Shown here piece after piece: positions 1,093 to 36,572 of a stretch of DNA of 64,000 nucleotides. This DNA is from an uncultured Alistipes sp. Its GTDB lineage: Bacteria > Bacteroidota > Bacteroidia > Bacteroidales > Rikenellaceae. Numbering within the stretch: the first letter of the stretch is position 1; each line of letters starts with the position of its first letter. The stretch spans positions 711,446 through 775,445 of the forward strand of contig CALURC010000016.1 of the NCBI GenBank assembly GCA_944323075.1. Direction: 5' to 3'. Below the pieces are notes generated by a model that was not told the origin of the DNA, searched no databases, and worked only from the letters and a program-made list of their open reading frames with translations. The position numbers were made by a program, and so were the translations under genes.

Positions 1093-1114
1093 AATTACCT
1101 ACATAATTAATAAT

Positions 1115-1144
1115 TTGCGGCATTCGGAAATTCGGATGCCGCAA
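1115..1144. terminator. Intrinsic terminator hairpin after the fimbrillin gene
   Basis: TTGCGGCATTCGG-AAATT-CGGATGCCGCAA inverted repeat, 23 nt after the stop codon. Confidence 0.7.
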
Positions 1145-1876
1145 TAATATAAACTAAACTGCATCAACTATTATTTTTCCAAAAACATCTTGTGAAAGTT
1201 TCAAAATTCCAGAATAGCTTCACTAAGTTCTCCATATCAGCCAAAAACTTCCCATCAAATCATGCTTATCCTCTACCTCTACACCAGAAATGTGTTTTTG
1301 ATCTCTTTGTGTCGCCAAAATTATGTCCTTGACAATATTTGATTTCATTAATATATTGTGAGCATTGAAAGCATACAGTCTGTTTGTACCGATCAGCTTG
1401 TAAATTTCTAATAATGAAATTATCTCAATGCTTCCTTTGACATCAAAGTTTTCAAGTATCACTCTTCAACCCACCTATTAACAGACTGACACACATATTT
1501 GGTTTGGCAGGCAACATTTTGAGAGAAATGCGTATCTAATAATAACACATACAGAGCAAGATGTAGTAACTATAGGACAAGCCTAAATAGCATCAAGAAA
1601 GTCTTTTAAACCACAACAATAGACAATAATAAATACTATACTCATAACTTCACACCCAAAATCACACCTTCGCTTTTCACTCATGACCATGTTAACACAT
1701 GGTTTTAAACTATACGAAACAAACAACTAATCAAAAAAAGTTGATCCTCACAACTCTGTATTGTGTCTTAATTGATATAACAATCACCCAATATGCATCA
1801 AAATGTAATCTTTTATCAACAAGCCTTTATGTATAAAAACAAAATACACTCAAAACTCATACACCTAATACGTTAT

Positions 1877-3049
1877 TCAAGACAGACAAGAATCATTTAC
1901 TCGAAGTTCCTCCACAATGCGTTTACAAGCTAAGCCATCGCCATAAGGATTCACTGCCTTACTCATATTTTCGTAATATATATCATCTTCCAACAATCGG
2001 GAAACTTCATGCACAATTTTATCGTAATCTGTACCAACTAATTTAACAGTTCCCGCTTCTAGCGCTTCCGGACGTTCCGTCGTATCACGCATAACTAACA
2101 CAGGCTTTCCCAATCCAGGAGCCTCCTCTTGAATTCCACCGCTATCAGTCAGTACCAGCGTTGATTTTTCCATTAGATAGACAAACGAAAGATACTCGAG
2201 TGGTTCGATAAAAAACATATTTCCCAAGTTTGATAAATCCTCTCCGAAAACTTCGTAAATCGGCTTCCGAACGTTTGGATTCAAGTGCATCGGATACACA
2301 AAATCCACATCAGGATACTTCTCGGTCAATGTTTTGATGGCTTTACACATTGAGATGAACCCATCGCCAAAATTTTCACGACGATGACCGGTAATCAAGA
2401 CCAGCTTTTTTCCCGCATCAAGCCGATGGATGTTATACCGGGCCTGATAGAGAATACCGACCAGTTCGGTTTGCAATTTTTTATCCTGTTGGATCTTATT
2501 GACAACCCAATACAGTGCGTCGATAACCGAATTCCCCGTTACGAAGATATGTTTTTCATCGACGCCCTCGGCAAGCAGGTTTTTTTTACTCAAGGGGGTG
2601 GGTGCAAAATGATAAGTGGCTATTCGTCCTGTCAATTGGCGGTTGATCTCTTCCGGCCACGGACTGTATATGTTGTGAGTTCTCAGTCCAGCTTCGACAT
2701 GTCCTACCGGGATCTGTTGGTAAAAAGCAGCCAATGCAGCAGCCATGGAAGTTGTCGTATCTCCATGTACCAAGACGATATCCGGGTGGCACTCTTTCAG
2801 AACGTCGCGCATTCCGATCAAAACTTTTGCGGTGACATCATACAAATCTTGCCCTTGTTTCATGATATTCAGATCATAATTGGGTTTGATATCAAAAATA
2901 TCCAACACCTGATCCAACATTTCACGATGTTGCCCCGTGACACATACTATTGTCTCGAAGTGCTCAGTATCCTTTTGCAAAGCTTTCACCAACGGTGCCA
3001 TTTTAATCGCTTCTGGACGTGTCCCAAATACAAGCATTATCTTTTTCAT
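1877..3049 (-). CDS. wecB: UDP-N-acetylglucosamine 2-epimerase (non-hydrolysing)
   Basis: [43 protein letters not shown] motifs. Confidence 0.97.
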
Positions 3050-3066
3050 AAACTTATTCGTTCAAT

Positions 3067-3918
3067 TTAATCAATCAACAATTTTTCGACTTTATTCCAC
3101 TCTATCATTTCTTCGGCAGTCATAAGATCAATAAATCTAAAATCCGTAAGCCACTTTCGCATTTTTTTCTCCGCATTTTGTAGACCATAATATGATTTAA
3201 AACGTCTTAACAGACTCAAATCTGGAATCTTCGGCTGGCAATAATCCAAATCCCGAGGATGAATGTAACTTAGTAAATATCCATCAGATTCGTTAGTCCA
3301 TTTTTTTATTAGACCATATGGGAAAAAACGAAAATATCCTCCTCCCGAAAAAATTATATGTTTTCCATATATCGTTTTATATGTTATCGGAAACTCTTTT
3401 ATTTCTATCCCACCTTTACATATAATAGACGGACCTTTTGCTGAATAGGTTGCCATTCCTCCATGAGCATGATGTGCAGGGAATATTGAACAGTCAATCG
3501 TTATTCCTAGTTCATGTAAAATTTCAAAAGCCCATACTTCTGATTCCCGGATAGAGAAACCCGGAGCCCGAAAAGCCTCAACCTTTTGGCCACTAATATC
3601 TTCTAACAATTTAATCGATGAGGATACATCTTCCTTAAATTCGGCGACGGACTGCTGCCAAACCAATTGATGATTCATCGTATGGCTTCCTATCTGATAT
3701 TTAGCAGCAATTTCCCTAACAACATCTGGATAATTTTTTGCAACCCACCCTATTATAAAAAAGGTCGCTTTTGTATTGGTATCCTCCAAAATACGGAAAA
3801 TACGTTCCATATTTTGATAGATACGCACTTCATAATTCCGCCATTGTGTTTCAGAACGTGTGGAATCATTATCCAAAAGATGGAACCACTCTTCTACATC
3901 AATTGTCAAAATATTCAT
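3067..3918 (-). CDS. Polysaccharide deacetylase (NodB/CE4-like, DUF3473-type)
   Basis: LTIDVEEW, ATFFIIG, IGSH, FRAPGFS, GGGYFR, YIHPRD motifs. Confidence 0.9.
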   Translation of the reverse strand: MNILTIDVEEWFHLLDNDSTRSETQWRNYEVRIYQNMERIFRILEDTNTKATFFIIGWVAKNYPDVVREIAAKYQIGSHTMNHQLVWQQSVAEFKEDVSSSIKLLEDISGQKVEAFRAPGFSIRESEVWAFEILHELGITIDCSIFPAHHAHGGMATYSAKGPSIICKGGIEIKEFPITYKTIYGKHIIFSGGGYFRFFPYGLIKKWTNESDGYLLSYIHPRDLDYCQPKIPDLSLLRRFKSYYGLQNAEKKMRKWLTDFRFIDLMTAEEMIEWNKVEKLLID

Positions 3919-4889
3919 TACCTTACATCATAATTAAGTAACCCAAAATCCCACTTATCAAAATCGAGCATATCTTTATGAATTTCATCATCTTTTATTA
4001 GCAAATCACAAGTTAAAGGTAATGATTTCGGTTCAAAGTTTTGTGGAATACAAAGGAAAAGTGTCTGGAATAATTTCAGCGGGCCCACATAGAGAATTAA
4101 ATCAACTTTATGTTCTTTTAAAATTGAAAATACGCCCTTATATAAGGATAAGAAACTCATCCTTTTTTTTTGCCTAGAATAAATCAAATATGCTGTCCTA
4201 ACGCCCTGTTCATCTACTATCCGAAAACAATTCATGCAATTTCTATGATGTATCTGCACATAATCATCATGTGAGAAACGGCCTTGGAGAAAGGATTCAT
4301 CATCTACTATCTCATACTGAAATTTTTTTTGGCTACTCCTACACAACGCACTAAGAACAAAAGATATACTCACAGCTATATATACGTATATCAAAGAACA
4401 CACATTGAGTAACTTACTTTTACGCATAATATTACCCACTCGGACTGGCATTCCCCAATATTTAATCATTCCAACATCTTGCCATTTTACAACATTCTTC
4501 CAATATGAATAAGCTGTTTCATTAGGTACCGCCATTACTGACACAATCCTTTTCTCAATCAATAGTGTCGTTAATCTTTTATACATTCTTCGAAGCGTAA
4601 AAGGATCGCTCCGATAATCTTCCAATATAAAAACATCTGCAGCCAAGCCTATTTTTATCAACTCATCTTCATTGTGTCTATACCAATATGGAATAACAGA
4701 TATATTCCCCACAACCTTATCTTCATGCAATAACAATGCATGATACGATTGCCTGTCGCAAACAGAAAGATATTTATTATTAAAATAATCCTTTGTGAAT
4801 CCTTTATGAAATATGGCTTCGAAACTTGAGACAAAACTTTCCCATTCACAATAGGACCATTCTTGTGTACTACAAATTTTTATTTCCAT
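3918..4889 (-). CDS. GNAT/FemAB-like acyltransferase
   Basis: GNAT-like segment KIGLAADVFILEDYR and MAVPNETAYSYW. Stop overlaps the deacetylase start (TAATG). Confidence 0.6.
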   Translation of the reverse strand: MEIKICSTQEWSYCEWESFVSSFEAIFHKGFTKDYFNNKYLSVCDRQSYHALLLHEDKVVGNISVIPYWYRHNEDELIKIGLAADVFILEDYRSDPFTLRRMYKRLTTLLIEKRIVSVMAVPNETAYSYWKNVVKWQDVGMIKYWGMPVRVGNIMRKSKLLNVCSLIYVYIAVSISFVLSALCRSSQKKFQYEIVDDESFLQGRFSHDDYVQIHHRNCMNCFRIVDEQGVRTAYLIYSRQKKRMSFLSLYKGVFSILKEHKVDLILYVGPLKLFQTLFLCIPQNFEPKSLPLTCDLLIKDDEIHKDMLDFDKWDFGLLNYDVR

Positions 4890-4891
4890 CT

Positions 4892-5620
4892 TTAAATCGT
4901 ACCTGAATCCACATATACATTCTGGCCTGTAATAGACCTTGAAAGATCCGATAACAAAAATCTAATTGTCGCTGCAACTGACTTCGTCGTTGTAGGGGTT
5001 TTCATAGATGTTCGTTTGTATATTCTATTTTTCTGATCCTCTGTCAAAGTTGCACTCATATCCGTCTCCATAAAACCTGCGACCAATATATTTGAACGAA
5101 TACCTTTTTCTCCCCATTCTCTAGCTGTATTTTTTGAAAATGCTTCTAATGCTCCTTTACTAGACGCATACATAGCCAAACCCTTATACCCCGTATGTAC
5201 ACTTATGGATGAGACATGCACTATACTCCCTTTTACTTGATGCAATAAAAAATGACGAATGACATATTTCGTCACAAACATCGGAGTAAAAACGTTTACT
5301 TTATACATATCTAACAAAGGTTCATAATTCAAGTTCGTTACAATATCATCATAAGCGACTGCTGCATTATTTACAAAACCATGTATTGGTGTTTGAATTC
5401 CAATGAAGTCTTTAAAAATTCTTGCACGTACATGATCCACATCATTTAAATCATACGACATCCATTTTAACCGAAATGGATACTGATCCATCAAATTTAC
5501 CAATCCTTGACTTTTAGATCGACTTATTCCATACACAACCGTATCCTCTTCTTCTAATATAGATTTTACAATCTCTAGTCCCAAACCTCTTGAAACACCC
5601 GTTATCAATATATTTCTCAT
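4892..5620 (-). CDS. SDR oxidoreductase, FabG-like
   Basis: TGVSRGLG, NNAAV, catalytic YASSK, GFMETDM. Confidence 0.9.
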   Translation of the reverse strand: MRNILITGVSRGLGLEIVKSILEEEDTVVYGISRSKSQGLVNLMDQYPFRLKWMSYDLNDVDHVRARIFKDFIGIQTPIHGFVNNAAVAYDDIVTNLNYEPLLDMYKVNVFTPMFVTKYVIRHFLLHQVKGSIVHVSSISVHTGYKGLAMYASSKGALEAFSKNTAREWGEKGIRSNILVAGFMETDMSATLTEDQKNRIYKRTSMKTPTTTKSVAATIRFLLSDLSRSITGQNVYVDSGTI

Positions 5621-6861
5621 AATCTATCCCTCGTAATTTTTCCAGTTCTGGTCACCTCTAATTTATCTACAAATTTAATAATTCTCGGAATTTTAAACTC
5701 CTGTAATCTTTGAGACAAATACAACCTAATATCTTTCTCTTTTAATAATACTGATTCCGATACTATATTACAACATATGATGTTACCTAATATGCTGTTT
5801 CTTTTCGCATAAACCACTACATCACTTACTCCTGGATAGCTTCTTATCATATCTTCGACTTCATGCGGATTTACTTTATATCCTCCAACATTAATCATTT
5901 CATTTTTCCGCGATATAAACTTAAATGTAAATGGACATTCCGAAACAACTGAAATTAAATCACCGGTCGGATACCAATCTCCCTGAAGTTTTATACTGTC
6001 AGAAAACCCCACTAAATCCCGATGAATATAGAGTTCACTACCAACTATCTTAAAAAGATTCTCCATTCCCTGTTTTATTTGGAACACATCTCCTTTCGCC
6101 GCAAATAATGTTCCTGCTTCCGTTGATGCATAGACATTTATCAACTTTGCATTTGGGAAAGCTGTCAACAAATTGTACTGTGTTCTGGCATCAAATTTTT
6201 CTCCACCAGACGTCAACCGCACAACACTACCATAAGATTTTTCAACAGGCAAAAGAAGCCTATAAAAAGTCGGAGTAGCAGAAATATTAGTAATACCATA
6301 CTCCTCAATTAATGTATATATCTCTTCTCTTGAGTATGAAAATATTCGGATAATCGTATTACAATTCAATAATGCCTGAAAAAAAACTTGTAGGCCAGCC
6401 ATATGGGTTGGATTATATGCAAACCCCCATATATCATTGATATGGTTTCCCGATTTTTTAACTTGTCGGGTTATTGATGCGAATGTATGGGAAATCCGTT
6501 TGGGCAAACCCGTTGTCCCTGATGTAAACAATGTTATTCTCCAATTATGTAGTTGTGTTCCCTTCAATATTCGTTCTAAATCAAAGGAATAATTGGATAA
6601 ATCAATCTTTTCTTCCGAACGTTCAATCAAAGAACTATCTTCAATCAATTTTTCCACCTCTGATATGGAAAAATCTGAATCCAATAATATAATTTCTTTA
6701 TCAAGAATTAAAGATAATACTATTCGTTTGAAGATTTCATAATAGGAATGTTCGAAGCAATATTTGTTATAAGAACGTGACTGCTTTATATCCGAATATA
6801 AATCCTCATATGATTTGTAGATGTTTTCTCTCTTATCTACAAAGAAAAGCTTTTGCACCAT
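5617..6861 (-). CDS. ANL-family adenylating enzyme (acyl-ACP/CoA ligase), short N-terminus
   Basis: FTSGTTGLPK AMP-binding loop, YASTEAG, TGDL, GGYKVNPHEVE, FKIP C-terminal motif. Confidence 0.9.
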   Translation of the reverse strand: MVQKLFFVDKRENIYKSYEDLYSDIKQSRSYNKYCFEHSYYEIFKRIVLSLILDKEIILLDSDFSISEVEKLIEDSSLIERSEEKIDLSNYSFDLERILKGTQLHNWRITLFTSGTTGLPKRISHTFASITRQVKKSGNHINDIWGFAYNPTHMAGLQVFFQALLNCNTIIRIFSYSREEIYTLIEEYGITNISATPTFYRLLLPVEKSYGSVVRLTSGGEKFDARTQYNLLTAFPNAKLINVYASTEAGTLFAAKGDVFQIKQGMENLFKIVGSELYIHRDLVGFSDSIKLQGDWYPTGDLISVVSECPFTFKFISRKNEMINVGGYKVNPHEVEDMIRSYPGVSDVVVYAKRNSILGNIICCNIVSESVLLKEKDIRLYLSQRLQEFKIPRIIKFVDKLEVTRTGKITRDRL

Positions 6862-7079
6862 TACATGATTTTTTTTGTTATATCTCCAATAGTCATAACC
6901 ACCCCATCTTCAAATATATCAACATCATATTCTGCTTCAATCCTTACTGTCAATTCTGCCAAATCCAAAGAATCAAACCCCAAATCATTTCTCAAATTTG
7001 TATCCGGATTGATATCATCCACAATGTTTTTACCACGATTTTCCAAAATCGTATTGACAATCTGTAACAAGCGCTCCAT
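6861..7079 (-). CDS. Acyl carrier protein
   Basis: 72 aa acidic protein with the GFDSLDLAEL phosphopantetheine motif. Confidence 0.9.
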   Translation of the reverse strand: MERLLQIVNTILENRGKNIVDDINPDTNLRNDLGFDSLDLAELTVRIEAEYDVDIFEDGVVMTIGDITKKIM

Positions 7080-7085
7080 AATCTT

Positions 7086-7784
7086 TTAATATTTATTTAA
7101 GTACAAATTAATCCAAAATGGCAATGCCTTAATGTAGCGTTTAATTTTATACGGCTGTTTGAATAGTCTATAAGCTCCTTCTAAGTTATGATCAATCCAC
7201 CATTGCGGAGCCCGTTTTACATGTCCTGTATACACATCAAAGCTTCCTCCTAACCCCTGGTATATAGCATTATGCCTACGTTGCATCTCCTCCATAAGAA
7301 GCTCTTGTTTCGGTGACCCCATTGCAACAAATATCACATCTGGTTTCTTCTTTTCAACATCCTCAATTAATTTCAACCTCTCCTCGTTCGTTCTAATATA
7401 ACCATCTCTATAACCAACTATTCGAATGCCTTTAAACTCTTGTCTCAATTTAGATACAGTTTCATTAATAACCTCCGGCCTAGCGCCTACCAAATAAAAG
7501 CTTTTCTTTTTGTGGTAAGCATCTACTATTTTCAGCCACAATTCACAACCTGGTATTTTACATGAATCTTTATATCCTTTTTTTCTTAGAGCCAACATCG
7601 CTCCGACTCCGTCACAATATCCGATATTTCTATTAATGATAGCTCTTGTCTGATCGGTTGCATGCAGAATCTTATCTGCATTTATTGCAACAAGAATACC
7701 CTTATGAACATCTATATATTTCAACAACTGTTGTGCTGAATTATAAGGATACACTTTTACTCCATTTAGTGATACCGCCTCCAT
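7086..7784 (-). CDS. WecG/TagA/CpsF-family glycosyltransferase (probable ManNAcA transferase)
   Basis: YCDGVG, KIPGCEL, GYRDGY, VAMGSPKQE, GLGGSFDV, RAPQW. ATG at 7784 preferred over the GTG at 7823. Confidence 0.9.
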   Translation of the reverse strand: MEAVSLNGVKVYPYNSAQQLLKYIDVHKGILVAINADKILHATDQTRAIINRNIGYCDGVGAMLALRKKGYKDSCKIPGCELWLKIVDAYHKKKSFYLVGARPEVINETVSKLRQEFKGIRIVGYRDGYIRTNEERLKLIEDVEKKKPDVIFVAMGSPKQELLMEEMQRRHNAIYQGLGGSFDVYTGHVKRAPQWWIDHNLEGAYRLFKQPYKIKRYIKALPFWINLYLNKY

Positions 7785-8173
7785 ATTTATCAAATGTTCG
7801 CCTCTTCTTTTTATAATACTCACAACTATTCTAATTTGTATATCCCTTTTCAGTTTTTATAACTCAACGATTACTTTTGTTCAAAAAATCTCCTTTACTC
7901 CAACTATCGAGACAAATACCATTATACAATGATACAAATATACATACTAATTTCATCTTGTTGGTTCCATGGCCAGCTTAGGTCCACACTCGTGTATCCA
8001 AACAATAAATATCTACCCATTTTTATACTATCAATACTTTATCCCTTATTTTAAATACTATACCACACAAAATTCACAGCATTCTCCCAATATACAATAA
8101 TAAATAGAACAATCAGAGCATCTACAAATAAATAATTATTTTTACGCACTCCTTTTTTTATTCAAAATATTCA

Positions 8174-8599
8174 TCACTCAACTAAATGACCATATTTACC
8201 AGTATGGATACCCACTCGAATTACTCGAGCTGGATTTCCTGCGACAATACAATTTGAAGGAACGGACTTAGTTACAACACTCCCTGCTCCAACCACAACT
8301 TCATTCCCAATCCGTACACCACACATAATAATTGCATTAACCCCAATAAAACAGTTATCTCCAATATATGTGTTTGTATGTATATGTCTAGCAAAATCAT
8401 GACTAAAAATAACGGCACCAGAAGCGATGTATGAACTTTTCCCAATATGAATTCCTCTTGGATTTGTTTTATCTAGCCTCGCCCCCAAAGAGATCCTTGC
8501 TGTACGCTCAATATCCATGTGATAGATTCTTCTATAAAACAAATGACAGAAGAAAAGTACTAACAAACGAATGGATTCACGAGCTTTAACAATAATCAT
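8174..8599 (-). CDS. Hexapeptide-repeat (LbH) O-acyltransferase
   Basis: IGDNCFIGVNAIIMCGVRIGNEVVVGAGSVVTKSVPSNCIVAGNPARVIR. Confidence 0.9.
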   Translation of the reverse strand: MIIVKARESIRLLVLFFCHLFYRRIYHMDIERTARISLGARLDKTNPRGIHIGKSSYIASGAVIFSHDFARHIHTNTYIGDNCFIGVNAIIMCGVRIGNEVVVGAGSVVTKSVPSNCIVAGNPARVIRVGIHTGKYGHLVE

Positions 8600-8743
8600 A
8601 ATTTAAAGAATTTGACAGATTGTATTAATATTTACATTCAAAAAAACTAAAAATCATTTTATTAATCAACCACTATCACCACATTAACACCTTAAACAAA
8701 TTCACTTTACAACCCCGATTATTCTTATAACACCAATTTTATA

Positions 8744-9823
8744 TTATAATGTTCGTAAATAATCATATAATTTATCCATAATATAATCTGTATCATATTT
8801 TAAAGATGATTTCCTTGCATTACCCGAAATAATATTTTTTTCACTATCTGTAAGATTATAATAACAATCTATCCTATCAATCAGACTAGAGATATCCCCT
8901 GTACTAAAAAAAAGACCATTTTTCCTATCCTCAATATAATCGGTAGGTCCATGAGAATCACTTGCTATAACAGGAATACCACAGGCCATTGCTTCAAGTC
9001 CGACCAGACCTAAAGATTCCTCTTTCCGAGTAGAAGGAAATATAAAACAATCCATCTGAGAAAATATAGAAGGAAGTTTATCATGTGGAATAGGTCCTAT
9101 ATAATCAACAATATTACTAAGATCCAATTGAGAAATCAGCTCTAACATCTCCTTGGTTTCTCCCCCTCTTCCTGCAATAATACCTCTAATATTTCCATAT
9201 CTTTGTCTCATATTATTTACTGCATTAAGAAATAAATCCCATCCTTTACCTTTATCTATTCTTGACACAAAACCCAGAACAAACATCTCTCGATCTTTTC
9301 GATTATTTAAAGGAGAAAACAAAGTTGTATTAACTCCTCCAGATGGAGAAACAAATATTTTTCCCGCAGGATAATCTGGCAAGAACTTAATTATTTCTTT
9401 TTTAAAATAATTTGAAGGAGAAACTATGGATATAGCCTGATTCAATATAGGTTTTGACAGTTTGCGAAGATACGACGCCTTTCCTCCTCCTAACAAATCT
9501 GCACCGTGTGTATTGAAAACCAATGGAAGTTTTTTAAAAATCGATACAAATTTTATCGGAATAATAGGATAAGTAATAGTATGAACATATATTAAATCAT
9601 ATCGGAAAAACAATAACACAAACAGACTCCTAAAATAAAAAATAAAATATTTATACACTTTCCCTATAACATTTTTACTTCTACCTTTAATAGCGATTAA
9701 TTCTGTTTTCCCTGATCGATTCTTCTTTACAATTGAATCCATAAACTCTTTAACAAAAGTTCCATAAACAGGATCTTTTGTTGAAGGATACATATTAGAG
9801 ATTACAAGTATCTTCATTATCAT
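8744..9823 (-). CDS. Glycosyltransferase family 4
   Basis: EESLGLVGLEAMACGIPVIAS (EX7E), FVSRIDKGKG. Confidence 0.92.
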   Translation of the reverse strand: MIMKILVISNMYPSTKDPVYGTFVKEFMDSIVKKNRSGKTELIAIKGRSKNVIGKVYKYFIFYFRSLFVLLFFRYDLIYVHTITYPIIPIKFVSIFKKLPLVFNTHGADLLGGGKASYLRKLSKPILNQAISIVSPSNYFKKEIIKFLPDYPAGKIFVSPSGGVNTTLFSPLNNRKDREMFVLGFVSRIDKGKGWDLFLNAVNNMRQRYGNIRGIIAGRGGETKEMLELISQLDLSNIVDYIGPIPHDKLPSIFSQMDCFIFPSTRKEESLGLVGLEAMACGIPVIASDSHGPTDYIEDRKNGLFFSTGDISSLIDRIDCYYNLTDSEKNIISGNARKSSLKYDTDYIMDKLYDYLRTL

Positions 9824-9830
9824 CTAAATA

Positions 9831-11000
9831 TTAAATTAATATCGGTAAATTTTTCCCAAAACAAAACTGATAACGAATACAATCTGTATGATTACCAGCA
9901 TCAGCATATATTTGTACGAGAAGATGCATTACAAATAAAAGAACAAACACAGCCCCCACCAAATCACCATTCTTTGTTTTATGTATTTTAAACAAATAGA
10001 AAAGAAAAAAAGAACCAACAATCACTCTAAATATATGAAAATAAGCAGTTACACGACTAAGCACCAAACTACTCATAAATAAAGGTTCAATAACAAAAAA
10101 AATAACATACATAATATATACAAAGCCAAATTTTTTTGACGGAAATACACTGTGTAATTTTTTTGACGAGAATATCAAACAAATATCAACAATAAGCATA
10201 AGGATCCTCCTTACTCCAAAATTCATTTCACGTCCTTCAAGACTATTTAAAGTATTTGCATCAAACCGATCATATCCAATAGCAGCGGAAATAATATCTA
10301 CATACTTTAATAAATATTCCCATATGGACATTTGAGACAAAAATAAGGCTGCAAAAAATAGGGACAATTGAAGCCAACGTGGAATAAAGAATTTTTCTAG
10401 ATTAAAAAAATACAACAAACAGAATGGCAGCAAAAACACAGCACTTGTATGTATAAATGATAATAATAATATCATACATATATACAATAGCACTCTACGT
10501 CTTTCTATTGTTAAAGAAACTACAAATAAGAAAGCTGTACATACCAAAGCTTGTCTCATTCCGTTCATCCAAAAGAAATAATCTCCGCCACACATTATCA
10601 AAACCAACAAATATGGTAAGATATATAATTCTTTACGAAATGAATTTACACAAAAGAATAATTGCATAAAGGCGACAAGTCCAAAATATATCGTAAAATG
10701 AGCACCTAATTCAGCCAAAAAAAGTTGCAAGTACACATACCCAATCTCCATATCCTCCCTATCGAGACTACCATACTTACATATTGATGAATAATCTTCG
10801 AGATAACTTAAATGATCTATACCGACATCCCATCTAACAGCGGAAAAAAAAGTAAACACTATTACCCCAATCCATATACTCCAATTATATAACGGGGTAA
10901 CATTGGCTGTAATTCTATTATTAATTGACAACACTCGTATTTGAAAGGTCTGATATAGTGTGACAATCATAAAACCATACACCAAGATGCTTTGTAACAT
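9831..11000 (-). CDS. EpsG-family O-antigen/capsule polymerase (Wzy)
   Basis: Multi-TM protein with RWDVGIDHLSY, MRQAL, HTSAVF motifs. Confidence 0.85.
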   Translation of the reverse strand: MLQSILVYGFMIVTLYQTFQIRVLSINNRITANVTPLYNWSIWIGVIVFTFFSAVRWDVGIDHLSYLEDYSSICKYGSLDREDMEIGYVYLQLFLAELGAHFTIYFGLVAFMQLFFCVNSFRKELYILPYLLVLIMCGGDYFFWMNGMRQALVCTAFLFVVSLTIERRRVLLYICMILLLSFIHTSAVFLLPFCLLYFFNLEKFFIPRWLQLSLFFAALFLSQMSIWEYLLKYVDIISAAIGYDRFDANTLNSLEGREMNFGVRRILMLIVDICLIFSSKKLHSVFPSKKFGFVYIMYVIFFVIEPLFMSSLVLSRVTAYFHIFRVIVGSFFLFYLFKIHKTKNGDLVGAVFVLLFVMHLLVQIYADAGNHTDCIRYQFCFGKNLPILI

Positions 11001-29498: not shown

Positions 29499-30011
29499 TT
29501 ATCTCCGAATCAGCCGATTAATAAAGAACCATCCACCGACAATCTGCAGCGCCATTCCGGGCAACCCGATCCGGAAATCCTGTACGGCAAGGGCAAAATC
29601 ACCTACAATCGCCCATTCGCCCAAAGTTCCGAGAATCTGGTAAGCCAAAACGACGGCAACCAACAATCCGAACGATGCCCGTTTGAAATGCGAAGCCGCA
29701 TATCCTGCAACCAGTGCCAACAGAACCGATTTCAACAAGATAGCCGGAAGTCCTGCCACCGGAGGCATTCCGAACCACATCGAGTTCAACAACGGCGAAA
29801 AGACTGCGGTCAACAGTCCGACACGCCATCCATATTTATAGGCCCCGATCAGCGTAAAGAAGTAGATCGGCAGCCATCTCACCCCTCCTTGCGGGACAAG
29901 GTGGCACAACTGCGGCAGAACGATATTCCCCACAACAAACAATGCGGCAACCCAATAGGTCTTCACCCGGTTGTATTTCAGCGAATAGAATTTTACTGTT
30001 GTTGCTTCCAT
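29499..30011 (-). CDS. ECF transporter S-component-like membrane protein
   Basis: 170 aa, ~6 TM; LPQLCH, LPIYFFTL, GLLTAVFSPL, FGMPP. Confidence 0.7.
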   Translation of the reverse strand: MEATTVKFYSLKYNRVKTYWVAALFVVGNIVLPQLCHLVPQGGVRWLPIYFFTLIGAYKYGWRVGLLTAVFSPLLNSMWFGMPPVAGLPAILLKSVLLALVAGYAASHFKRASFGLLVAVVLAYQILGTLGEWAIVGDFALAVQDFRIGLPGMALQIVGGWFFINRLIRR

Positions 30012-30035
30012 CTTACATAAAACGTTTAAATTTCA

Positions 30036-31442
30036 CTACTCATTTTCCGACACACCAAACTCCTTACCTTGCTTCAGCGTCTCCACAAACGCATTGATAC
30101 GATGCATCTCATGGGGAATATTGATGCTCTGCGGACAATGCTCGATACACTGCCCACAACCGATACAATGATCTGCCTGACGGAGACGGGGCACACTGCG
30201 GTCGTACCCGACAAGGAAAGCCCGTCGTGCCCGCCGATAGTTCTCGTCCTGCGACGAAGCCGGTAGATTTCCCTCGTTGACACACTTGTTATAGTGCAGC
30301 AAAACGGCAGGTATGTCGATGCCGTATGGACACGGCATACAATATTTGCAGTCGTTACACGGAATCGTCGGATACTGCATCATCAGATCCGCCACATGTT
30401 GCAAAAACTCCTGCTCATCCTCGTCCAATGGAACCAACGGAGAGTAGGTACGGATGTTATCCTGCAGATGCTCCATATAGGTCATGCCGCTGAGTACCGT
30501 CAGCACCTTTTCGGGCGTACCGGCAAAACGGAAAGCCCATGACGCCACACTGGTCTCCGGATTCCGCTGTTTCAACTCCGACACGACATGGTCCGGCACA
30601 TTCGACAGCCGTCCGCCGAGCAGGGGTTCCATGATAACGGCCGGAATATTGCGTTTTTCCAGTTGATCGTACAGATACACGGCATCCACATTATTATTCG
30701 ATGCATGCTCCCAGTCAACATAATTGAGCTGAATCTGCACGAAGTCCCAGTGCACCGTATCGTGCATCGCCAACACCTCGTCGAAGACATCGACCGTACC
30801 GTGGAACGAAAAGCCCAAGTTCCGGATACGTCCTGCTTCACGCTCTTTCAACAAGAAATCCAAAATCCCGTTATCGATATACCGAGCCCGGAACGTCTTG
30901 ATCCCGCCATTACCGATCGAATGCAGCAGATAGTAGTCGATGTAATCCACCTGAAGCTCCTCGAACGATTTTTTGTACATGGCGATCGAGTTCTCCCGAG
31001 TATAGTTAGAGAAGTTAGAGAGTTTGGTCGCAATCTGGAATTTTTCGCGCGGATGACGCTTCAGGGCAATACCCGTCGACTTCTCTGACCAGCCCTGTAC
31101 GTACACGGGAGACGTATCGAAATAGGTCACCCCGTGTGCAATGGCATAATCGACTAACTCGTTGACCGCATCCTGATCGATCACATTACCATCCCCGTCA
31201 GGCGAAGGCAGTGTCGGCCATCGCATACACCCATAGCCCAACAACGACACCTGCTCCCCGTTTTTTGGATTGGTCCGGTAGGTCATCTGATCAGTAGGAA
31301 CCTCACCCTGTGCCGTCCGATCACCCGAGATCGGGTTTTTCTTCGAATCGCATCCCACGAGGGCAGCCGTCGTCGTTGCCGTACTGATCCCTACGATCTT
31401 CAAAAAATCACGACGCGATATATTTTTTTGTTTAGGATTCAT
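30036..31442 (-). CDS. Aldo/keto reductase with C-terminal 4Fe-4S dicluster and Tat (lipo)signal
   Basis: From ATG 31442: SRRDFLK, ALVG-C, SLLGYGCMR, FDTSPVY, IATK, CNDCKYCMPCP, CIGCGQCIEHCP. Confidence 0.9.
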   Translation of the reverse strand: MNPKQKNISRRDFLKIVGISTATTTAALVGCDSKKNPISGDRTAQGEVPTDQMTYRTNPKNGEQVSLLGYGCMRWPTLPSPDGDGNVIDQDAVNELVDYAIAHGVTYFDTSPVYVQGWSEKSTGIALKRHPREKFQIATKLSNFSNYTRENSIAMYKKSFEELQVDYIDYYLLHSIGNGGIKTFRARYIDNGILDFLLKEREAGRIRNLGFSFHGTVDVFDEVLAMHDTVHWDFVQIQLNYVDWEHASNNNVDAVYLYDQLEKRNIPAVIMEPLLGGRLSNVPDHVVSELKQRNPETSVASWAFRFAGTPEKVLTVLSGMTYMEHLQDNIRTYSPLVPLDEDEQEFLQHVADLMMQYPTIPCNDCKYCMPCPYGIDIPAVLLHYNKCVNEGNLPASSQDENYRRARRAFLVGYDRSVPRLRQADHCIGCGQCIEHCPQSINIPHEMHRINAFVETLKQGKEFGVSENE

Positions 31443-31468
31443 ATCCGTAAATTTTTCTTTTAAACATT

Positions 31469-32986
31469 CTATATCATCCGGTGTCTCTCGTGCCCTTCGA
31501 CATAAATCGCACTGAACGGACGGGACGGACAGAGATTTTCGCAGGCTCCGCAGCCGATACACTTCTCCTCATTTACAACTGGAATCTTCGGAGAATCGGG
31601 ATTCGCCGGATCGGAAGGGACCATCGAAATAGCCCCCGTCGGGCAGTGACGTGCACAGTTTCCGCACTCCACGCCATCGGTCAACGGAATACAGTTCTCC
31701 TTCACCCACACCGCATGACCGACCTGTATGGCCGACTTGTCCGCCGGTGTAATCTTCAGAATGGCTCCTGTCGGACACACCTCCGAACACTTCACACATT
31801 CGGGTCGGCAGTACCCTTTTTCATAAGAGGCTTCGGGTTGCATCAATACGGTCCATCCTGTCGAAGGTCGCAATACGCCCGTCGGACACACTGACACACA
31901 AAGTTGACAACCCGTACAATGAGCCGCCATATTCCGCAAGCTCTGGGCACCGGGCGGCACGATTGGCGTAGCACGGTTCGGAATCTTTTTATCCAGAATC
32001 ACGGCCAACCCGCCATCGACTTTCTTTTCTTGTGCCCGAACCGCTGCCGTCGCAGTCAGAAGCCCTACACCCGAAAGAAACATTCGACGGGCTGTATCAA
32101 CTTTTTCCTTATTATCGGAATGGGGCTCAGTTTTTGCCGAATCGGGCTTCTCGACACTCCGCATCGGCCGCAATCGATAACTGATCGCCCCTTGCCGACA
32201 CGACTCGATACAATCCATACATGCCACACATCGGCTGTAATCAATCCGATGAGCCTTCGAGTCGATACAAGAAGCCTTACAACGCCGCGAGCAAAGCGTA
32301 CACCCGTTACATTTCTCCGTATCGATTACCGGACGGAAAAGAGAGAAACGCGAGATGAAGCCCAAAACCGTCCCGACAGGGCAAATCGTATTACAATAGG
32401 TCCGTCCATTGCGCCACGCCAGAATGACAACAACAACAAAGGTTACGACCGCAACGATAAAGGTCGGCAGACTCTTGATCCACACCTCTTTTTCGTAGAA
32501 GGCATAACTATCCATACGCTCGGCTGCATAGGCTAACAGGTTGTTACCCCAACCCCATAGCGGAGCAAAAAGGTTTTGTGCGATTCTTCCGTACGCGCCA
32601 TAGGGATCCAACAAAGCCACAAACGAACCGACACCGGCGATCAGTGCAATGACCAACAACACTAGCATCGTATAACGTAACCACGAAATAGCAGGAGAAA
32701 AAGAAAACCGGTTATGTTTCTTTTTACGTCGACCGCTCAACCACGACACAATATCCTGCATCACCCCCAACGGACAGATCACCGAACAATAGACACGACC
32801 AAACAGCCACGTAACCAGAATCAGAGCGATAATCACTCCCACATTCAACGCCAAAACGGCAGGCAAGAACTGCACCTTCGCCAGCCACCTGAACCACGAG
32901 TGCAACGTTCCCGTAAAATCAAGAAACAGCAACGTTATCAGCACAAAACAGATCGCTGCCAGCAAAATTCTTATTTTCCTTAACAT
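31469..32986 (-). CDS. Membrane polyferredoxin (NapH/MauN-like plus NapF/G-like domains)
   Basis: N-terminal TMs, GRVYCSVICP, GRTYCNTICP, multiple CxxCxxCxxxCP motifs. Likely start ATG 32986. Confidence 0.88.
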   Translation of the reverse strand: MLRKIRILLAAICFVLITLLFLDFTGTLHSWFRWLAKVQFLPAVLALNVGVIIALILVTWLFGRVYCSVICPLGVMQDIVSWLSGRRKKKHNRFSFSPAISWLRYTMLVLLVIALIAGVGSFVALLDPYGAYGRIAQNLFAPLWGWGNNLLAYAAERMDSYAFYEKEVWIKSLPTFIVAVVTFVVVVILAWRNGRTYCNTICPVGTVLGFISRFSLFRPVIDTEKCNGCTLCSRRCKASCIDSKAHRIDYSRCVACMDCIESCRQGAISYRLRPMRSVEKPDSAKTEPHSDNKEKVDTARRMFLSGVGLLTATAAVRAQEKKVDGGLAVILDKKIPNRATPIVPPGAQSLRNMAAHCTGCQLCVSVCPTGVLRPSTGWTVLMQPEASYEKGYCRPECVKCSEVCPTGAILKITPADKSAIQVGHAVWVKENCIPLTDGVECGNCARHCPTGAISMVPSDPANPDSPKIPVVNEEKCIGCGACENLCPSRPFSAIYVEGHERHRMI

Positions 32987-33213
32987 AGATTTATTATAGC
33001 TAAATATTTTTTGTAAGCTCACCTCGGCAAAATTACTGATTCTCCGTCGTAATCGATAACCTCTATTCCAGATTTTTCAACCGATATCACAGATTACACA
33101 GACTTTTTTTCAAAAGCTTTCCTCTATTTGAGATTGTTTTTAAAAGCAGATCATCATTCCATTTTGAATCTCCGTTCGTACATTTCACTTCACTCAGCAC
33201 ACCCCAATAAATT

Positions 33214-33660
33214 TCATATCTTCTGCATTACCGTATGTTGAGATAGCTCCTGCATAAACTGGTCGATGATGACACGACACTCTTCGACCGTAGCCGCATG
33301 TATACACCGCTTCTCTAACGGACACCAATCCGATCCTTGTCGATTGATGATATGAGGAACCTCAACAGCATACTCCACCTCGATCCCATATGTCCGAAAA
33401 AATTCCAATGCAGGAGTACTGATCACGCGTGCAAACACCGCGCTCACTCCCCCCAAAATCATTAAGGTTGCAGCACCTCGGCCCACGACTTTATCTGCAA
33501 TGAACGCCCCGGTCAGAAATTCAGGCTCTTCTGTCAGCAAACGGTATAGATCTGAAACGCCTCGACCATAGAATGATCTGACTTCAACACCATTATCTAC
33601 CACACATGAGCTATTCTCCTCTACAAGACGATCGATCAACTTCTTTCTATCCCTATTCAT
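33214..33660 (-). CDS. DUF1893 (TM1506-like) protein
   Basis: GRGVSDL, ADKVVGRGAA, IINRQGSDWCPLE. Confidence 0.85.
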   Translation of the reverse strand: MNRDRKKLIDRLVEENSSCVVDNGVEVRSFYGRGVSDLYRLLTEEPEFLTGAFIADKVVGRGAATLMILGGVSAVFARVISTPALEFFRTYGIEVEYAVEVPHIINRQGSDWCPLEKRCIHAATVEECRVIIDQFMQELSQHTVMQKI

Positions 33661-33848
33661 TATTTCCCTTTAAATCCAATTTTCAAAAATACATTTAATT
33701 TCTCAAAGATCTATCGCTATCGCGAATCTCCATAATACTCTCTTTCATTCTAAAGTAATCCTCAAAAACCAACTGTCGACAGCTTTTATATGAACCGCCC
33801 TACAAACGTCGTTTACCTCTAAAAAAAATCCGGAGTGACATAAAAATA

Positions 33849-34062: not shown

Positions 34063-34575
34063 ATGAAAAAGACAGTAAACGTGAATATCGGCGGAATCGC
34101 ATTCATTTTAGACGAGGATGCCTATTTGTCGTTAAAAAGATATCTCGCCGAGATCGAAATCCGACTGGACGGCACTGACGACAAAGAGACCATGCAGGAC
34201 ATAGAGACTCGCATTGCCGACATCTTCAACGAAACACTCACCTCACGCAATCAAGTAGTCGACCTCTCACTGGTCCATCGAGCCATAGCCATTATCGGAA
34301 ACGCCCAGGAGTTCGGGGAACCCCGCCGCAGTTTGACACCGGAAGAACCGACAAACACCCCAAGTTACCGCAAACTTTATCGTAGCCGCAACGACCAGAT
34401 TGTCGGAGGCGTCTGCGGAGGTATCGCAGCATACTTCGAGATCGACCCTACGCTGATTCGTATTCTGATGGCCCTGTTCATCATCTTCGGAATCGGACTG
34501 ATCGTCTACATTGTACTGTGGATCATCATCCCGAAGGCTCCAGAAACCCGCTATCCCAATACATCGAACTTTTAA
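34063..34575 (+). CDS. PspC-domain protein (short)
   Basis: VNIGGIAFILDEDAY, KLYRSRNDQIVGGVCGGIAAYF, YIVLWIIIP. Confidence 0.9.
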   Translation: MKKTVNVNIGGIAFILDEDAYLSLKRYLAEIEIRLDGTDDKETMQDIETRIADIFNETLTSRNQVVDLSLVHRAIAIIGNAQEFGEPRRSLTPEEPTNTPSYRKLYRSRNDQIVGGVCGGIAAYFEIDPTLIRILMALFIIFGIGLIVYIVLWIIIPKAPETRYPNTSNF

Positions 34576-34593
34576 GGCAAGGAGGTTCACGTT

Positions 34594-34932
34594 ATGACAG
34601 AACTGAATATCGACAACATCAAAGCCCAGATGCGGAAAGGAATCCTGGAGTACTGCATTCTTTCGATCATCTCGCGTCAGGACGCCTACGCCTCATCGAT
34701 CATCGCCGAGCTGAAGAAAGCCGAAATGATCGTGGTCGAAGGAACGCTCTATCCACTGCTCACCCGCCAGAAGAATCAGGGTTTGCTCACGTACCGCTGG
34801 GAGGAGTCGCCACAGGGGCCTCCGCGAAAATACTATTCGATCACACCGAAAGGCAGGGAGTGTCTGGCTCAACTCGATCTGGCATGGAGCGAACTTGTTT
34901 CGCAGATCGCGGTTATCCGTAATGAACAATAA
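34594..34932 (+). CDS. PadR-family transcriptional regulator
   Basis: MRKGILEYCIL, EGTLYPLLTR, GPPRKYYSIT. Confidence 0.95.
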   Translation: MTELNIDNIKAQMRKGILEYCILSIISRQDAYASSIIAELKKAEMIVVEGTLYPLLTRQKNQGLLTYRWEESPQGPPRKYYSITPKGRECLAQLDLAWSELVSQIAVIRNEQ

Positions 34933-34945
34933 CAGATTTACGAAC

Positions 34946-36199
34946 ATGAATACTATCCACGTCAATATCGGAGGCATCGGATTTTCTCTAGAAGAGGAGG
35001 GGTATCGTCTTTTAAAGGAGTATCTGGTTCAGCTCGAAGTCCGGCTTCACGAAAATCCGGACAGAAAAGAAATTATATCTGATATAGAAGCTCGCATCTG
35101 CGAGCTGATTCTCGACGAACAGAGCCCCGAAAACATTGTCTCGGCCCCACGAATCAAAGAGATCATCAGACAACTCGGGCTTCCGGACGGTGCGGCAGGT
35201 TTTTCGGACGACAAGTGTGCTCCTCAACAAACCGAATATTCCAAAGAGACGCTCACCAAACGCCTCTACCGCAATCCGGACGGTGCCAAAATCGGTGGCG
35301 TGTGTAGCGGTCTTGCAACCTACTTTCAAATAGAACCGACGATCATCCGTCTTCTATTTTGTTCCCCGTTACTGCTGCTGATCTGCGTCAGCGTCATTCC
35401 GGTCATCAACATGCTTTGCCCCTTCTTTGGTGTTATGATTTCAGTAAGTATCTTGCTCTACCTGATTCTTTGGTTCGCAGTTCCTAAAGCATGCACCCCC
35501 CGGCAAAAACTCGAAATGACCGGATCTCCAATCACGGTTGCCTCCATCAGCCAAACACTCAGCAGCGATTTGTACGACAGTGGCGACTCTTCTTCAAAGA
35601 GTCGCCGCAGCGCTCCGATCATAGCCGAACTTCTCTACACGACCGGACGTATCGTATTGTTCTGCCTTAAAGCGTTCATGTTAGTCATTGCGATCGTCTT
35701 AAGTTTGATCGTCCTATTCGCTGGCATAGCATTTATCGCATTCATAATCGGTCTGTTGGTTTTCAACGTATCGTGGGAGCATCCTCTGGTATTGCCTCTG
35801 TTGTTGCCTTTGATCGTACTGCTCCCTACCGCCACGATCGTTTATCTGATTTTGAGATGGTTGTTCAAGGCACCGAAACGAGACAAAACCTTTTCCATAT
35901 TGACGGGCATCTGGATTCTGATTTTGATCTATTTCGGTATAGCTCTTCTGAAAGAGTATCCAAGAATCGAGAACTGGCTCGAGAATGACGGAATAGAGGA
36001 ATGGTATTTCGAACGGCTCCAACAACAGAATTCATCCGTAATCGATCTACCGGCAAACACGACGGGAAGCACTCCGATTGTTACACCGACGGCCATCGAA
36101 GATTCAATAACATCCGGTTCCCCGGTTGTCACAACAGCAGCTCCAACAGCAAGCGACACAATAAAGCCGGAAACAAATACAGAACTTTTAACCAACTAA
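34946..36199 (+). CDS. PspC-domain protein (long, multi-TM)
   Basis: VNIGGIGFSLEEEGY, LYRNPDGAKIGGVCSGLATYF, YLILWFAVP, QKLEMTG. Start ATG 34946 (or 34922). Confidence 0.85.
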   Translation: MNTIHVNIGGIGFSLEEEGYRLLKEYLVQLEVRLHENPDRKEIISDIEARICELILDEQSPENIVSAPRIKEIIRQLGLPDGAAGFSDDKCAPQQTEYSKETLTKRLYRNPDGAKIGGVCSGLATYFQIEPTIIRLLFCSPLLLLICVSVIPVINMLCPFFGVMISVSILLYLILWFAVPKACTPRQKLEMTGSPITVASISQTLSSDLYDSGDSSSKSRRSAPIIAELLYTTGRIVLFCLKAFMLVIAIVLSLIVLFAGIAFIAFIIGLLVFNVSWEHPLVLPLLLPLIVLLPTATIVYLILRWLFKAPKRDKTFSILTGIWILILIYFGIALLKEYPRIENWLENDGIEEWYFERLQQQNSSVIDLPANTTGSTPIVTPTAIEDSITSGSPVVTTAAPTASDTIKPETNTELLTN

Positions 36200-36206
36200 T
36201 CGAATT

Positions 36207-36572
36207 ATGGAAATCATCTCAGATAAATCTTCTCGCAAGAGCAAAAAAATCTCATTCAACCGTGCTCGGAATACATACATCGGCTCCGTACTGATCCTTG
36301 CCAGCATCATTTGGCTACTGCGTAATTTCGACATACTTCCTCCCGACATATTCGATGCGATCTTCTCTTGGCCGATGTTGGTCGTTCTGGTCGGAGGTTA
36401 CCTGCTGACAATGCGGCAATACATAACAGGAGGTATAGTCACATTCGTAGGATCTCTTCTCCTTCTGATTCGAACGATGCATCTACACTTCCCCTTGGAC
36501 AAGATTTTCGTTCCACTACTACTCTTTTGTACCGGAATCGCTTTCCTTTCTTCCATTCGGAACAAAGAGTAA
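36207..36572 (+). CDS. LiaF-like/DUF5668-type small membrane protein
   Basis: 4 TM; IWLLRNFDI, IFSWPMLVVLVG. Follows the PspC module. Confidence 0.6.
   Translation: MEIISDKSSRKSKKISFNRARNTYIGSVLILASIIWLLRNFDILPPDIFDAIFSWPMLVVLVGGYLLTMRQYITGGIVTFVGSLLLLIRTMHLHFPLDKIFVPLLLFCTGIAFLSSIRNKE

Follow-up and report, generated by a model that had tools for sequence, protein, structure and literature searches.

One close described relative of the locus considered here, a four-gene cluster at positions 29499-33660 of a 64,000-nt stretch of Alistipes DNA (the whole stretch is referred to as the window), is an operon of a TM1506-like protein, an aldo-keto reductase (AKR) and a five-transmembrane protein. 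It was noted in Firmicutes and Bacteroidetes together with a fusion of TM1506 to a TonB receptor (Iyer, Zhang, Rogozin, Aravind 2011, PMC3239186). TM1506 was found with a ligand resembling ADP-ribose or NAD and with its Asp56 ADP-ribosylated; the Fe-S domain was read as a zinc ribbon, and a transport regulator sensing NAD or ADP-ribose was proposed (PMC3239186). The same three families are linked in the window, and the TM1506-TonB fusion was seen again in two of the loci compared here, L009 and G401. The polyferredoxin, the form of the AKR that is a lipoprotein of the twin-arginine translocation (Tat) system, the linkage to tatC, the phosphoribosyltransferase (PRT) alternative, DUF362 and the nickel-pincer link, all treated below, are undescribed in that study.

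For the AKR, a relevant characterized protein is NphT (PDB 9YEB), an AKR-fold enzyme that binds nickel-pincer mononucleotide (NPMN) (Semersky et al., Nat Chem 2026, PMC13524815). Its His144 coordinates the nickel and its Lys200 tethers the cofactor covalently, and the His without the Lys is present in 40 % of Lar-linked AKRs; Fe-S AKRs, transporters and DUF1893 are not mentioned in that paper (PMC13524815). Already known, then, are the three-gene link, published in 2011, and the nickel-pincer AKRs, published in 2026. In the searchable literature, an exported Fe-S AKR with a polyferredoxin, the linkage to tatC, the alternation of DUF1893 with PRT and a transport route for the cofactor are not described.

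AKRs are soluble NAD(P)H enzymes. The glucose-fructose oxidoreductase of Zymomonas, which is exported by Tat and holds its NADP non-dissociably, resembles the system proposed here as an oxidoreductase of nicotinamide type that receives its cofactor in the cytoplasm and crosses the membrane in the folded state; it differs in its Gfo/Idh/MocA fold and in the absence of an Fe-S domain, a membrane partner and uptake genes. Among membrane carriers, BtuM, from work of Rempel et al. in 2018, is said to act with BtuB as a solitary S-component-type carrier of vitamin B12 in Gram-negative bacteria without energy-coupling factor (ECF) modules.

The cluster consists of four co-oriented genes, as had been recognized in the initial annotation; all four minus-strand open reading frames (ORFs) were confirmed and matched to families.

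33214..33660, minus strand: DUF1893/TM1506-family protein, 148 aa (PF08973, E 8e-46, 155 bits)
31469..32986, minus strand: polyferredoxin with fused NapH-like and NapG-like parts, 505 aa, probable ATG start at 32986 (Fer4_5 twice and four further Fer4 motifs)
30036..31442, minus strand: Tat-signal lipoprotein AKR, 468 aa, with a C-terminal 2x[4Fe-4S]-type domain (PF00248, E 7e-35, and Fer4_9)
29499..30011, minus strand: solitary membrane protein of the ECF S-component fold, here termed S5TM, 170 aa (PF12822, 31.5 bits vs cut-off 30.7)

These genes very probably represent two modules, one for redox chemistry (polyferredoxin and AKR) and one for uptake (S5TM and DUF1893). Much more tentatively, at somewhat less than even chances, the uptake pair is proposed to salvage a nickel-pincer-type cofactor that is loaded into the AKR before Tat export.

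Gene neighbourhoods were compared across 180 loci anchored on the transporter, comprising 20 from 201 genomes of the same order, 80 from a set with one genome per species and 80 metagenome loci chosen to be distant. The loci are non-independent, and the genome contexts were sampled from Bacteroidota, including metagenome-assembled genomes (MAGs) labelled Oscillospiraceae. The closest related loci came from Rikenellaceae and Alistipes, and culturable candidate carriers of the operon are Bacteroides cellulosilyticus DSM 14838, B. oleiciplenus YIT 12058, Phocaeicola plebeius and Odoribacter laneus. Consistent with the initial expectation that the genes belong together, they were grouped in most of the 80 genome loci and many of the 80 metagenome loci, and the co-occurrence of the four is far beyond chance. 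The commonest order in Bacteroidales is polyferredoxin, AKR, DUF1893, sometimes a TonB receptor of ~620 aa, and the transporter, often followed directly by tatC and a shadow ORF at the expected tatA site. The window holds a variant of this arrangement, with DUF1893 moved to the front and the receptor absent.

DUF1893 was found within 6.5 kb of the transporter in 106/180 loci and a PRT-like protein with an intact phosphoribosyl pyrophosphate (PRPP) loop within the same distance in 23/180, the two never sharing a locus (0/180). An exported AKR was nearby in 79/180 loci, the polyferredoxin in 77/180, a TonB receptor closest to BtuB in ~45/180 and tatC in 34/180. The Tat-type AKR adjoins a polyferredoxin in 77 of 81 cases, a relation that holds across many families, and two or three of the four exceptions lie at contig ends. 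Two more AKRs, with RK-variant signals, both have the polyferredoxin, while none of 22 cytoplasmic AKRs has one adjacent. Coupling of the AKR to a membrane Fe-S polyferredoxin is supported by this difference (77/81 vs 0/22).

The two modules are separable. In the order sample, the AKR with an Fe-S domain (AKR-FeS) was present in 31 genomes, the transporter in 19 and both in 15, and the polyferredoxin-AKR pair stands alone in AKR genomes lacking the transporter. The transporter with DUF1893 or PRT is found with a cytoplasmic AKR-FeS, which is the triad of Iyer et al. 2011 (PMC3239186), with a secreted DUF362 protein and polyferredoxin, with a cytoplasmic DUF362 protein bearing an Fe-S insert, with an FmdE-domain protein, with a 400-aa protein of no known family, or with no such partner. 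The initial annotation had coupled the reductase to uptake of a cofactor-like compound. The uptake of such a compound is supported, and the idea of a single unit is not, since at least 11 genomes carry the polyferredoxin-AKR pair alone and cytoplasmic forms of the AKR exist.

Several of these partner arrangements recur. In L104-L106 (e.g. L105:6966-7994) a cytoplasmic DUF362 protein with two inserted 4Fe-4S motifs lies directly 5' of the transporter and a PRT-like gene, mirroring the AKR-FeS/transporter/DUF1893 triad. A conserved protein of ~400 aa, with a faint match to deoxyhypusine synthase and positioned after a glutaminyl-tRNA synthetase, precedes transporter and DUF1893 in seven metagenome loci (L135, L162, L170, L178 at 6736-7941, L179, L182 and L017:8495-9715). 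In eight metagenome loci, among them L113:719-1264, L125, L153, L157, L164 and L172, the transporter is followed by an FmdE-domain protein of ~180 aa. Contigs labelled Ruminococcus flavefaciens, Eggerthellaceae and Oscillospiraceae (L045, L057 and L094) carry Bacteroidales-type operons at 67-68 % identity and are likely mis-binned or mislabelled MAGs; the relatives of L094, labelled Oscillospiraceae, fall in the window's own phylum.

The AKR scores 120.9 bits against PF00248 (cut-off 24), and its AlphaFold model (pLDDT 86) has its best fold matches among AKRs such as L-galactose dehydrogenase; L-galactose dehydrogenases are its nearest solved relatives by both sequence and fold. The gene probably starts at 31442, 26 nt past the polyferredoxin stop codon, with a GTG at 31562 disfavoured. 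At the N-terminus, SRRDFLK is followed by a hydrophobic stretch and then by the lipobox LVGC, and the two Cys4 motifs (C362-C371 and C426-C436) are at least 90 % conserved; the Tat motif, lipobox and Fe-S dicluster of the initial annotation were all recovered. Export of the AKR is predicted, and its periplasm-facing position, as originally proposed, is supported by the long AKR forms, 63 of 65 of which retain both the Tat motif and the lipobox Cys, by the presence of tatC in the genome (on contig 13) and by the loci with tatC near the operon. A Tat system dedicated to the operon was ruled out by the presence of ~13 Tat-motif ORFs genome-wide.

The catalytic tetrad of the AKR (D109, Y114, K140 and H174) is retained and is conserved in the family. 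In the cofactor site, S212-F213-H214 replaces the canonical GxSN[FY], and the Asn that holds the nicotinamide carboxamide is gone in all ~85 AKR-FeS sequences. All AKR-FeS proteins, exported or cytoplasmic, instead have G(F/W)S(F/Y/C)H at the position of Thr142-x-His144 of NphT; in an alignment of 41 sequences, one of them an NphT orthologue, H214 never varies, and M271-E272 occupy the position of NphT I199-K200. Loss of normal NAD(P)H use by the AKR is plausible from its sequence, because another residue stands in place of the carboxamide-holding Asn and an invariant His comes directly after it. The NADPH-independence suggested in the initial annotation is in the same position: on checking the conservation of the NADPH site, the Asn was found to be lost but the tetrad kept.

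For the polyferredoxin, hydropathy and motif scans gave an N-terminal part with four transmembrane helices, two CxxxCP motifs and two cytoplasmic Cys4 motifs. Then comes a linker with a twin-arginine segment, ARRMFLSGVGLL, at ~residue 310, followed by four Cys motifs predicted to be periplasmic. The best NCBIfam matches were NapH TIGR02163 for the first half (79 bits vs cut-off 213) and NapG TIGR00397 for the second (63 vs 179), and no nap genes were found near the cluster. We read the protein as a NapH-NapG-type fusion in which the internal twin-arginine segment would serve as a fifth, Tat-type membrane anchor. The likeness to NapGH extends to the helices and motifs of the NapH part, to the twin-arginine and four Cys motifs of the NapG part and to the predicted transfer of electrons between menaquinol and a periplasmic enzyme. 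The window protein differs in being a single chain with the Tat-like segment internal, in having an AKR instead of NapAB as partner and in scoring far below the cut-offs. The placement of the twin-arginine segment (residues ~300-330), after a Sec-type four-helix domain and a cytoplasmic Fe-S domain, predicts insertion by Sec and Tat together. Some actinobacterial Rieske proteins are polytopic and likewise need both Sec and Tat for insertion.

The AlphaFold model of S5TM (pLDDT 92.5) shows a six-helix S-component fold and matches S components only, with a Foldseek probability of 1.00 for RibU, FolT, BioY, ThiT and PanT (TM 0.6-0.7). Identity across Bacteroidales families is 60-88 % and His37 is invariant. 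S5TM is the sole PF12822 gene of the window genome, and the lack of ECF A and T genes initially noted for the window holds for EcfT well beyond it: PF02361 has no match anywhere in the genome, which is 95.8 % complete. A canonical ECF transporter is ruled out by this absence, leaving a solitary S component. A function in the uptake of a cofactor-like compound is supported because of the S-component fold, the frequent TonB receptor and the nucleotide-binding partner proteins. The likeness to BtuM lies in an S-component fold without EcfT/EcfA, in pairing with a BtuB-like receptor, in an invariant His that could ligate metal and in the organometallic cofactor that is the cargo of BtuM. The difference lies in the lack of detectable sequence similarity to S5TM, in an operon without a cobalamin riboswitch and in the constant partners, DUF1893 or the PRT-like protein.

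DUF1893 lacks a signal peptide and is predicted to be cytoplasmic, and its PDB matches are 1VK9 (E 6e-12) and 9E9A. Asp56 in its motif DKxVGxxAA, which equals TM1506 Asp56, is at least 90 % conserved in 81 homologues; retention of the Asp that is ADP-ribosylated in TM1506 suggests ribosyl-enzyme chemistry. The alternative partner, a PRT-like protein of 131-136 aa, has its PRPP loop intact, and the two proteins look like alternative means of trapping or loading a ribonucleotide-type cargo. Metabolic trapping is required for a solitary carrier without an ATPase, as established for Pnu-type carriers. At L009:8515-10794 (759 aa) and G401:C3 ~183285-183671 (825 aa), DUF1893 lies in one frame with a TonB-dependent receptor; both frames lack a 5' signal peptide and may be true fusions with odd topology or contain an internal start of the receptor.

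For the cargo, the identity of the cofactor, the substrate and the direction of electron flow, we infer the following scheme. The NapH-NapG-type polyferredoxin would link the membrane quinone pool to the lipid-anchored exported AKR, which, with its two Fe-S clusters, presumably could not rely on free periplasmic NAD(P)H. S5TM would work with cytoplasmic DUF1893, with a BtuB-like outer-membrane receptor added in relatives, and this module would import a pyridine-nucleotide-like cofactor or precursor, for which NPMN, a compound that the window genome is unable to synthesise, is the best candidate. In the cytoplasm, ahead of Tat export, the cargo would be trapped by DUF1893 or inserted by it into the apo-AKR. 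Hydride would then pass between the substrate and the bound cofactor, and electrons between the Fe-S clusters and the polyferredoxin and quinone pool. It appears more likely that the transporter supplies the cofactor of the enzyme than that it imports the product.

A quinone pool is likely in the host, because cytochrome bd and a UbiA-family prenyltransferase are present; the latter, the only one in the genome, adjoins cytochrome bd subunit I (G000:C16:265731-269484). The curated MenA model had no match in the genome. By midpoint potentials, the reduction of ordinary carbonyls by menaquinol is uphill and the oxidation of an aldose or alcohol to menaquinone is favourable. Because of these potentials and of the L-galactose dehydrogenases as nearest solved relatives, we lean, with low confidence, towards the AKR as a dehydrogenase that oxidises sugars or alcohols and passes the electrons to the quinone pool, over a quinol-driven carbonyl reductase. 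Of the initial suggestion that a membrane Fe-S chain feeds a reductase, the coupling to the chain was retained, and the direction was not, since textbook potentials make quinol-driven carbonyl reduction uphill.

The nickel-pincer cofactor was considered by aligning the AKR with NphT, with an NphT orthologue (~50 % identical to 9YEB) as a bridge. The window AKR shares with NphT the AKR barrel, the catalytic Asp and His and the Ser/Thr-x-His at the nickel-binding position. It differs in sequence (~23 % identical to the NphT orthologue from L020), in Glu for Lys200, in the added 2x[4Fe-4S]-type domain, Tat signal, lipid anchor and polyferredoxin partner, and in its genome, which lacks the co-occurrence with LarB/LarC/LarE. 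In the window genome LarC, a LarA-type gene and DUF362 were not found, and LarE had no match above cut-off. The absence of LarC and LarE therefore leads to the salvage hypothesis.

A true NphT orthologue with a Tat signal stands beside the same transporter in another Bacteroidales genome, G487. Its match to 9YEB has an E value of 1.8e-56, and Ser/Thr-x-His, Lys and WYEP are all present in it. In L208 (G487:C1:283000-297000, 426-10615) its operon, made up of S5TM, the PRT-like gene, the orthologue and a TonB receptor, is convergent with a sugar-acid operon. The latter encodes a short-chain dehydrogenase/reductase (SDR), a PfkB kinase, a LarA-like protein (444 aa), a 2-hydroxyacid dehydrogenase and a 6-phosphogluconate dehydrogenase, so that two candidate nickel-pincer enzymes flank the uptake genes; LarC was not found in the G487 genome. 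A third class of AKR-FeS is cytoplasmic, ~382 aa long and bears its Fe-S domain at the C-terminus. It combines the NphT-type His (SSHNP) with the Lys (VMKVY), and its canonical catalytic Lys position reads QGHLC, the usual Lys being absent. It was found in the same operons as the transporter at the following positions.

L023:3404-4552
L066:4868-6016
L067:6810-7958
L072:1527-2678
L100:4468-5616

The recurrent partner DUF362 and the N-terminal domain of LarA are placed in one Pfam clan (PMC11770544). A weak alignment pairs the GGxIK of DUF362 with GGYK in a LarA-like structure, the region where the NPMN-tethering Lys of LarA lies. LarC was found in none of the transporter-bearing genomes (0/19 and 0/50, together 0/69) vs 32/182 of the others in the same-order sample. 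Operons with both a cytoplasmic and an exported AKR (L034 and L023) are more readily explained by a common cofactor than by a common substrate route.

Several observations weigh against a salvaged nickel-pincer cofactor. The window AKR has Glu at the position of the covalent Lys200 of NphT; by analogy with the 40 % of Lar-linked AKRs that have the His without the Lys, its cofactor could be bound non-covalently. Its catalytic tetrad is complete as well, and its C-terminal cofactor motif looks normal. The anticorrelation with LarC follows family lines, and its counts ignore phylogeny. No lar gene adjoins the transporter in the 180 loci, and among 13 genomes with a LarA-like gene and no LarC, only three have the transporter (3/13). 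Searches with Rfam of the window region and of the operon in 18 loci gave no riboswitch or other clue to the ligand. A strict dependency, in which each AKR-FeS genome would have the transporter or LarC, failed: of the 31 AKR-FeS genomes 16 lack the transporter, only one of these 16 has LarC, and a re-search of the 16 recovered a probable broken transporter copy in two and DUF1893 only in two. After family-level re-searches, at least 11 genomes have the polyferredoxin-AKR pair and neither transporter, DUF1893 nor LarC.

The main alternative, which we regard as unlikely although not by far, is that the cluster handles a substrate instead of a cofactor, which extends the model of the initial annotation. 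Here the receptor would admit an oxidised nutrient of cofactor or base type, the periplasmic Fe-S AKR (or, in other genomes, DUF362) would reduce it with quinol electrons, the S component would import the product and DUF1893 or PRT would trap it as a nucleotide. Such a route places receptor, periplasmic enzyme, inner-membrane carrier and cytoplasmic enzyme in pathway order, and it gives the mutually exclusive DUF1893 and PRT with an intact PRPP loop a role as two ways to ribosylate an imported base. The trapping that a solitary carrier without an ATPase requires, as with Pnu-type carriers, would follow from it, and lone polyferredoxin-AKR pairs are easily accepted if uptake is optional. It therefore fits the gene order and the stand-alone pairs better than salvage does. 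It is at odds with the pairing of the same conserved transporter with unrelated enzymes (AKR-FeS, NphT-like AKR, DUF362 and DUF362-FeS) in either compartment, with operons that join a cytoplasmic and an exported AKR and with menaquinol being too weak for ordinary carbonyls by textbook potentials, and neither a candidate substrate nor a riboswitch nor a gene of a downstream pathway turned up for it. Salvage of the cofactor accounts for one conserved carrier serving unrelated enzymes in both compartments. It also accounts for an inner-membrane importer and a cytoplasmic protein in the operon of a periplasmic enzyme, and for tatC alongside.

That each module is found without the other would also fit two functionally independent modules, an explanation we consider improbable. 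The AKR would then be a respiratory dehydrogenase or reductase with tightly bound flavin or NAD(P), the latter as in the Tat-exported glucose-fructose oxidoreductase, as its tetrad and C-terminal motif would allow, and S5TM with DUF1893 or PRT would salvage a common base or nucleotide, e.g. of niacin type, in keeping with the NAD-like ligand and ADP-ribosylated conserved Asp of TM1506; the locus would be shared for regulatory or historical reasons. Against this stand the one shared operon in ~77/180 transporter loci from many Bacteroidales families, the cytoplasmic triad in other lineages (PMC3239186) and the loss of the carboxamide-binding Asn in every AKR-FeS member. It is very unlikely that DUF1893 acts as a NapD/TorD-type Tat proofreading chaperone for the AKR and that the S-component-like protein is a membrane part of the redox complex and no transporter. 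In favour are the small size of the two proteins, their tight linkage to a Tat substrate and a frequently neighbouring tatC; against are the TonB receptors that join the pair and a fold that matches only substrate-binding S components. The chaperone role of DUF1893 was rejected on its occurrence, together with S5TM, with cytoplasmic AKRs and without any AKR or polyferredoxin. With these alternatives weighed, the cofactor salvage proposal can be worded for the group as a whole, at slightly longer odds than for the uptake pair itself: gut Bacteroidales unable to make NPMN may salvage it or a late precursor from neighbours through the BtuB-like receptor, the S component and DUF1893 or PRT, for both exported and cytoplasmic client enzymes, including a new class of nickel-pincer AKR wired to the quinone pool by its Fe-S clusters and the NapGH-like polyferredoxin.

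The transcription of the cluster was considered from its spacing and from pattern matches. From 5' to 3' along the cluster the intergenic gaps are 227, 26 and 24 nt, the first being AT-rich, and the following elements were identified.

33684..33691, minus strand: -7 promoter box TAnnTTTG of the Bacteroidetes type, a pattern match only, in a 30%-GC upstream region and 23 nt 5' of the DUF1893 start codon
33028..33035, minus strand: second TAnnTTTG box, a pattern match, within the 227-nt gap and 41 nt 5' of the polyferredoxin start codon
29383-29417: 16-bp palindromic hairpin between the cluster end and a convergent plus-strand ORF

With one -7 box ahead of DUF1893 and another ahead of the polyferredoxin, the cluster is probably transcribed as two units, polyferredoxin, AKR and S5TM forming a unit of their own. 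The hairpin is probably a bidirectional terminator. Rfam gave no RNA element for this region of the window, nor for the operon in 18 related loci. L004 has a cobalamin riboswitch, which was discarded as a clue to the ligand, since it lies 7 kb off and serves other genes. A nearby AraC gene was likewise discarded as a conserved regulator, its likeness to the AraC genes of other loci being limited to the helix-turn-helix (HTH) region. Divergent from the cluster, at 34063-36572 of the window, lie two PspC-domain genes and LiaF/LiaI-like membrane proteins, an envelope-stress-type set that is not kept beside the operon in other genomes.

This AKR family, widespread in gut Bacteroidales and predicted to be exported, lipid-anchored, Fe-S-bearing and quinone-wired, represents a different use of the AKR fold, and it may give dominant gut bacteria an unrecognised entry or exit for respiratory electrons. 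Should the uptake pair carry the nickel-pincer cofactor, this would be the first transport and cross-feeding system for that cofactor and would for the first time tie nickel-pincer catalysis to an electron-transport chain, and DUF1893, DUF362 and a large group of orphan S components would all gain a function. The salvage proposal is directly testable in culturable Bacteroides that bear the operon. If it is true, the cofactor would be a shared, vitamin-like public good in the gut, comparable to B12.

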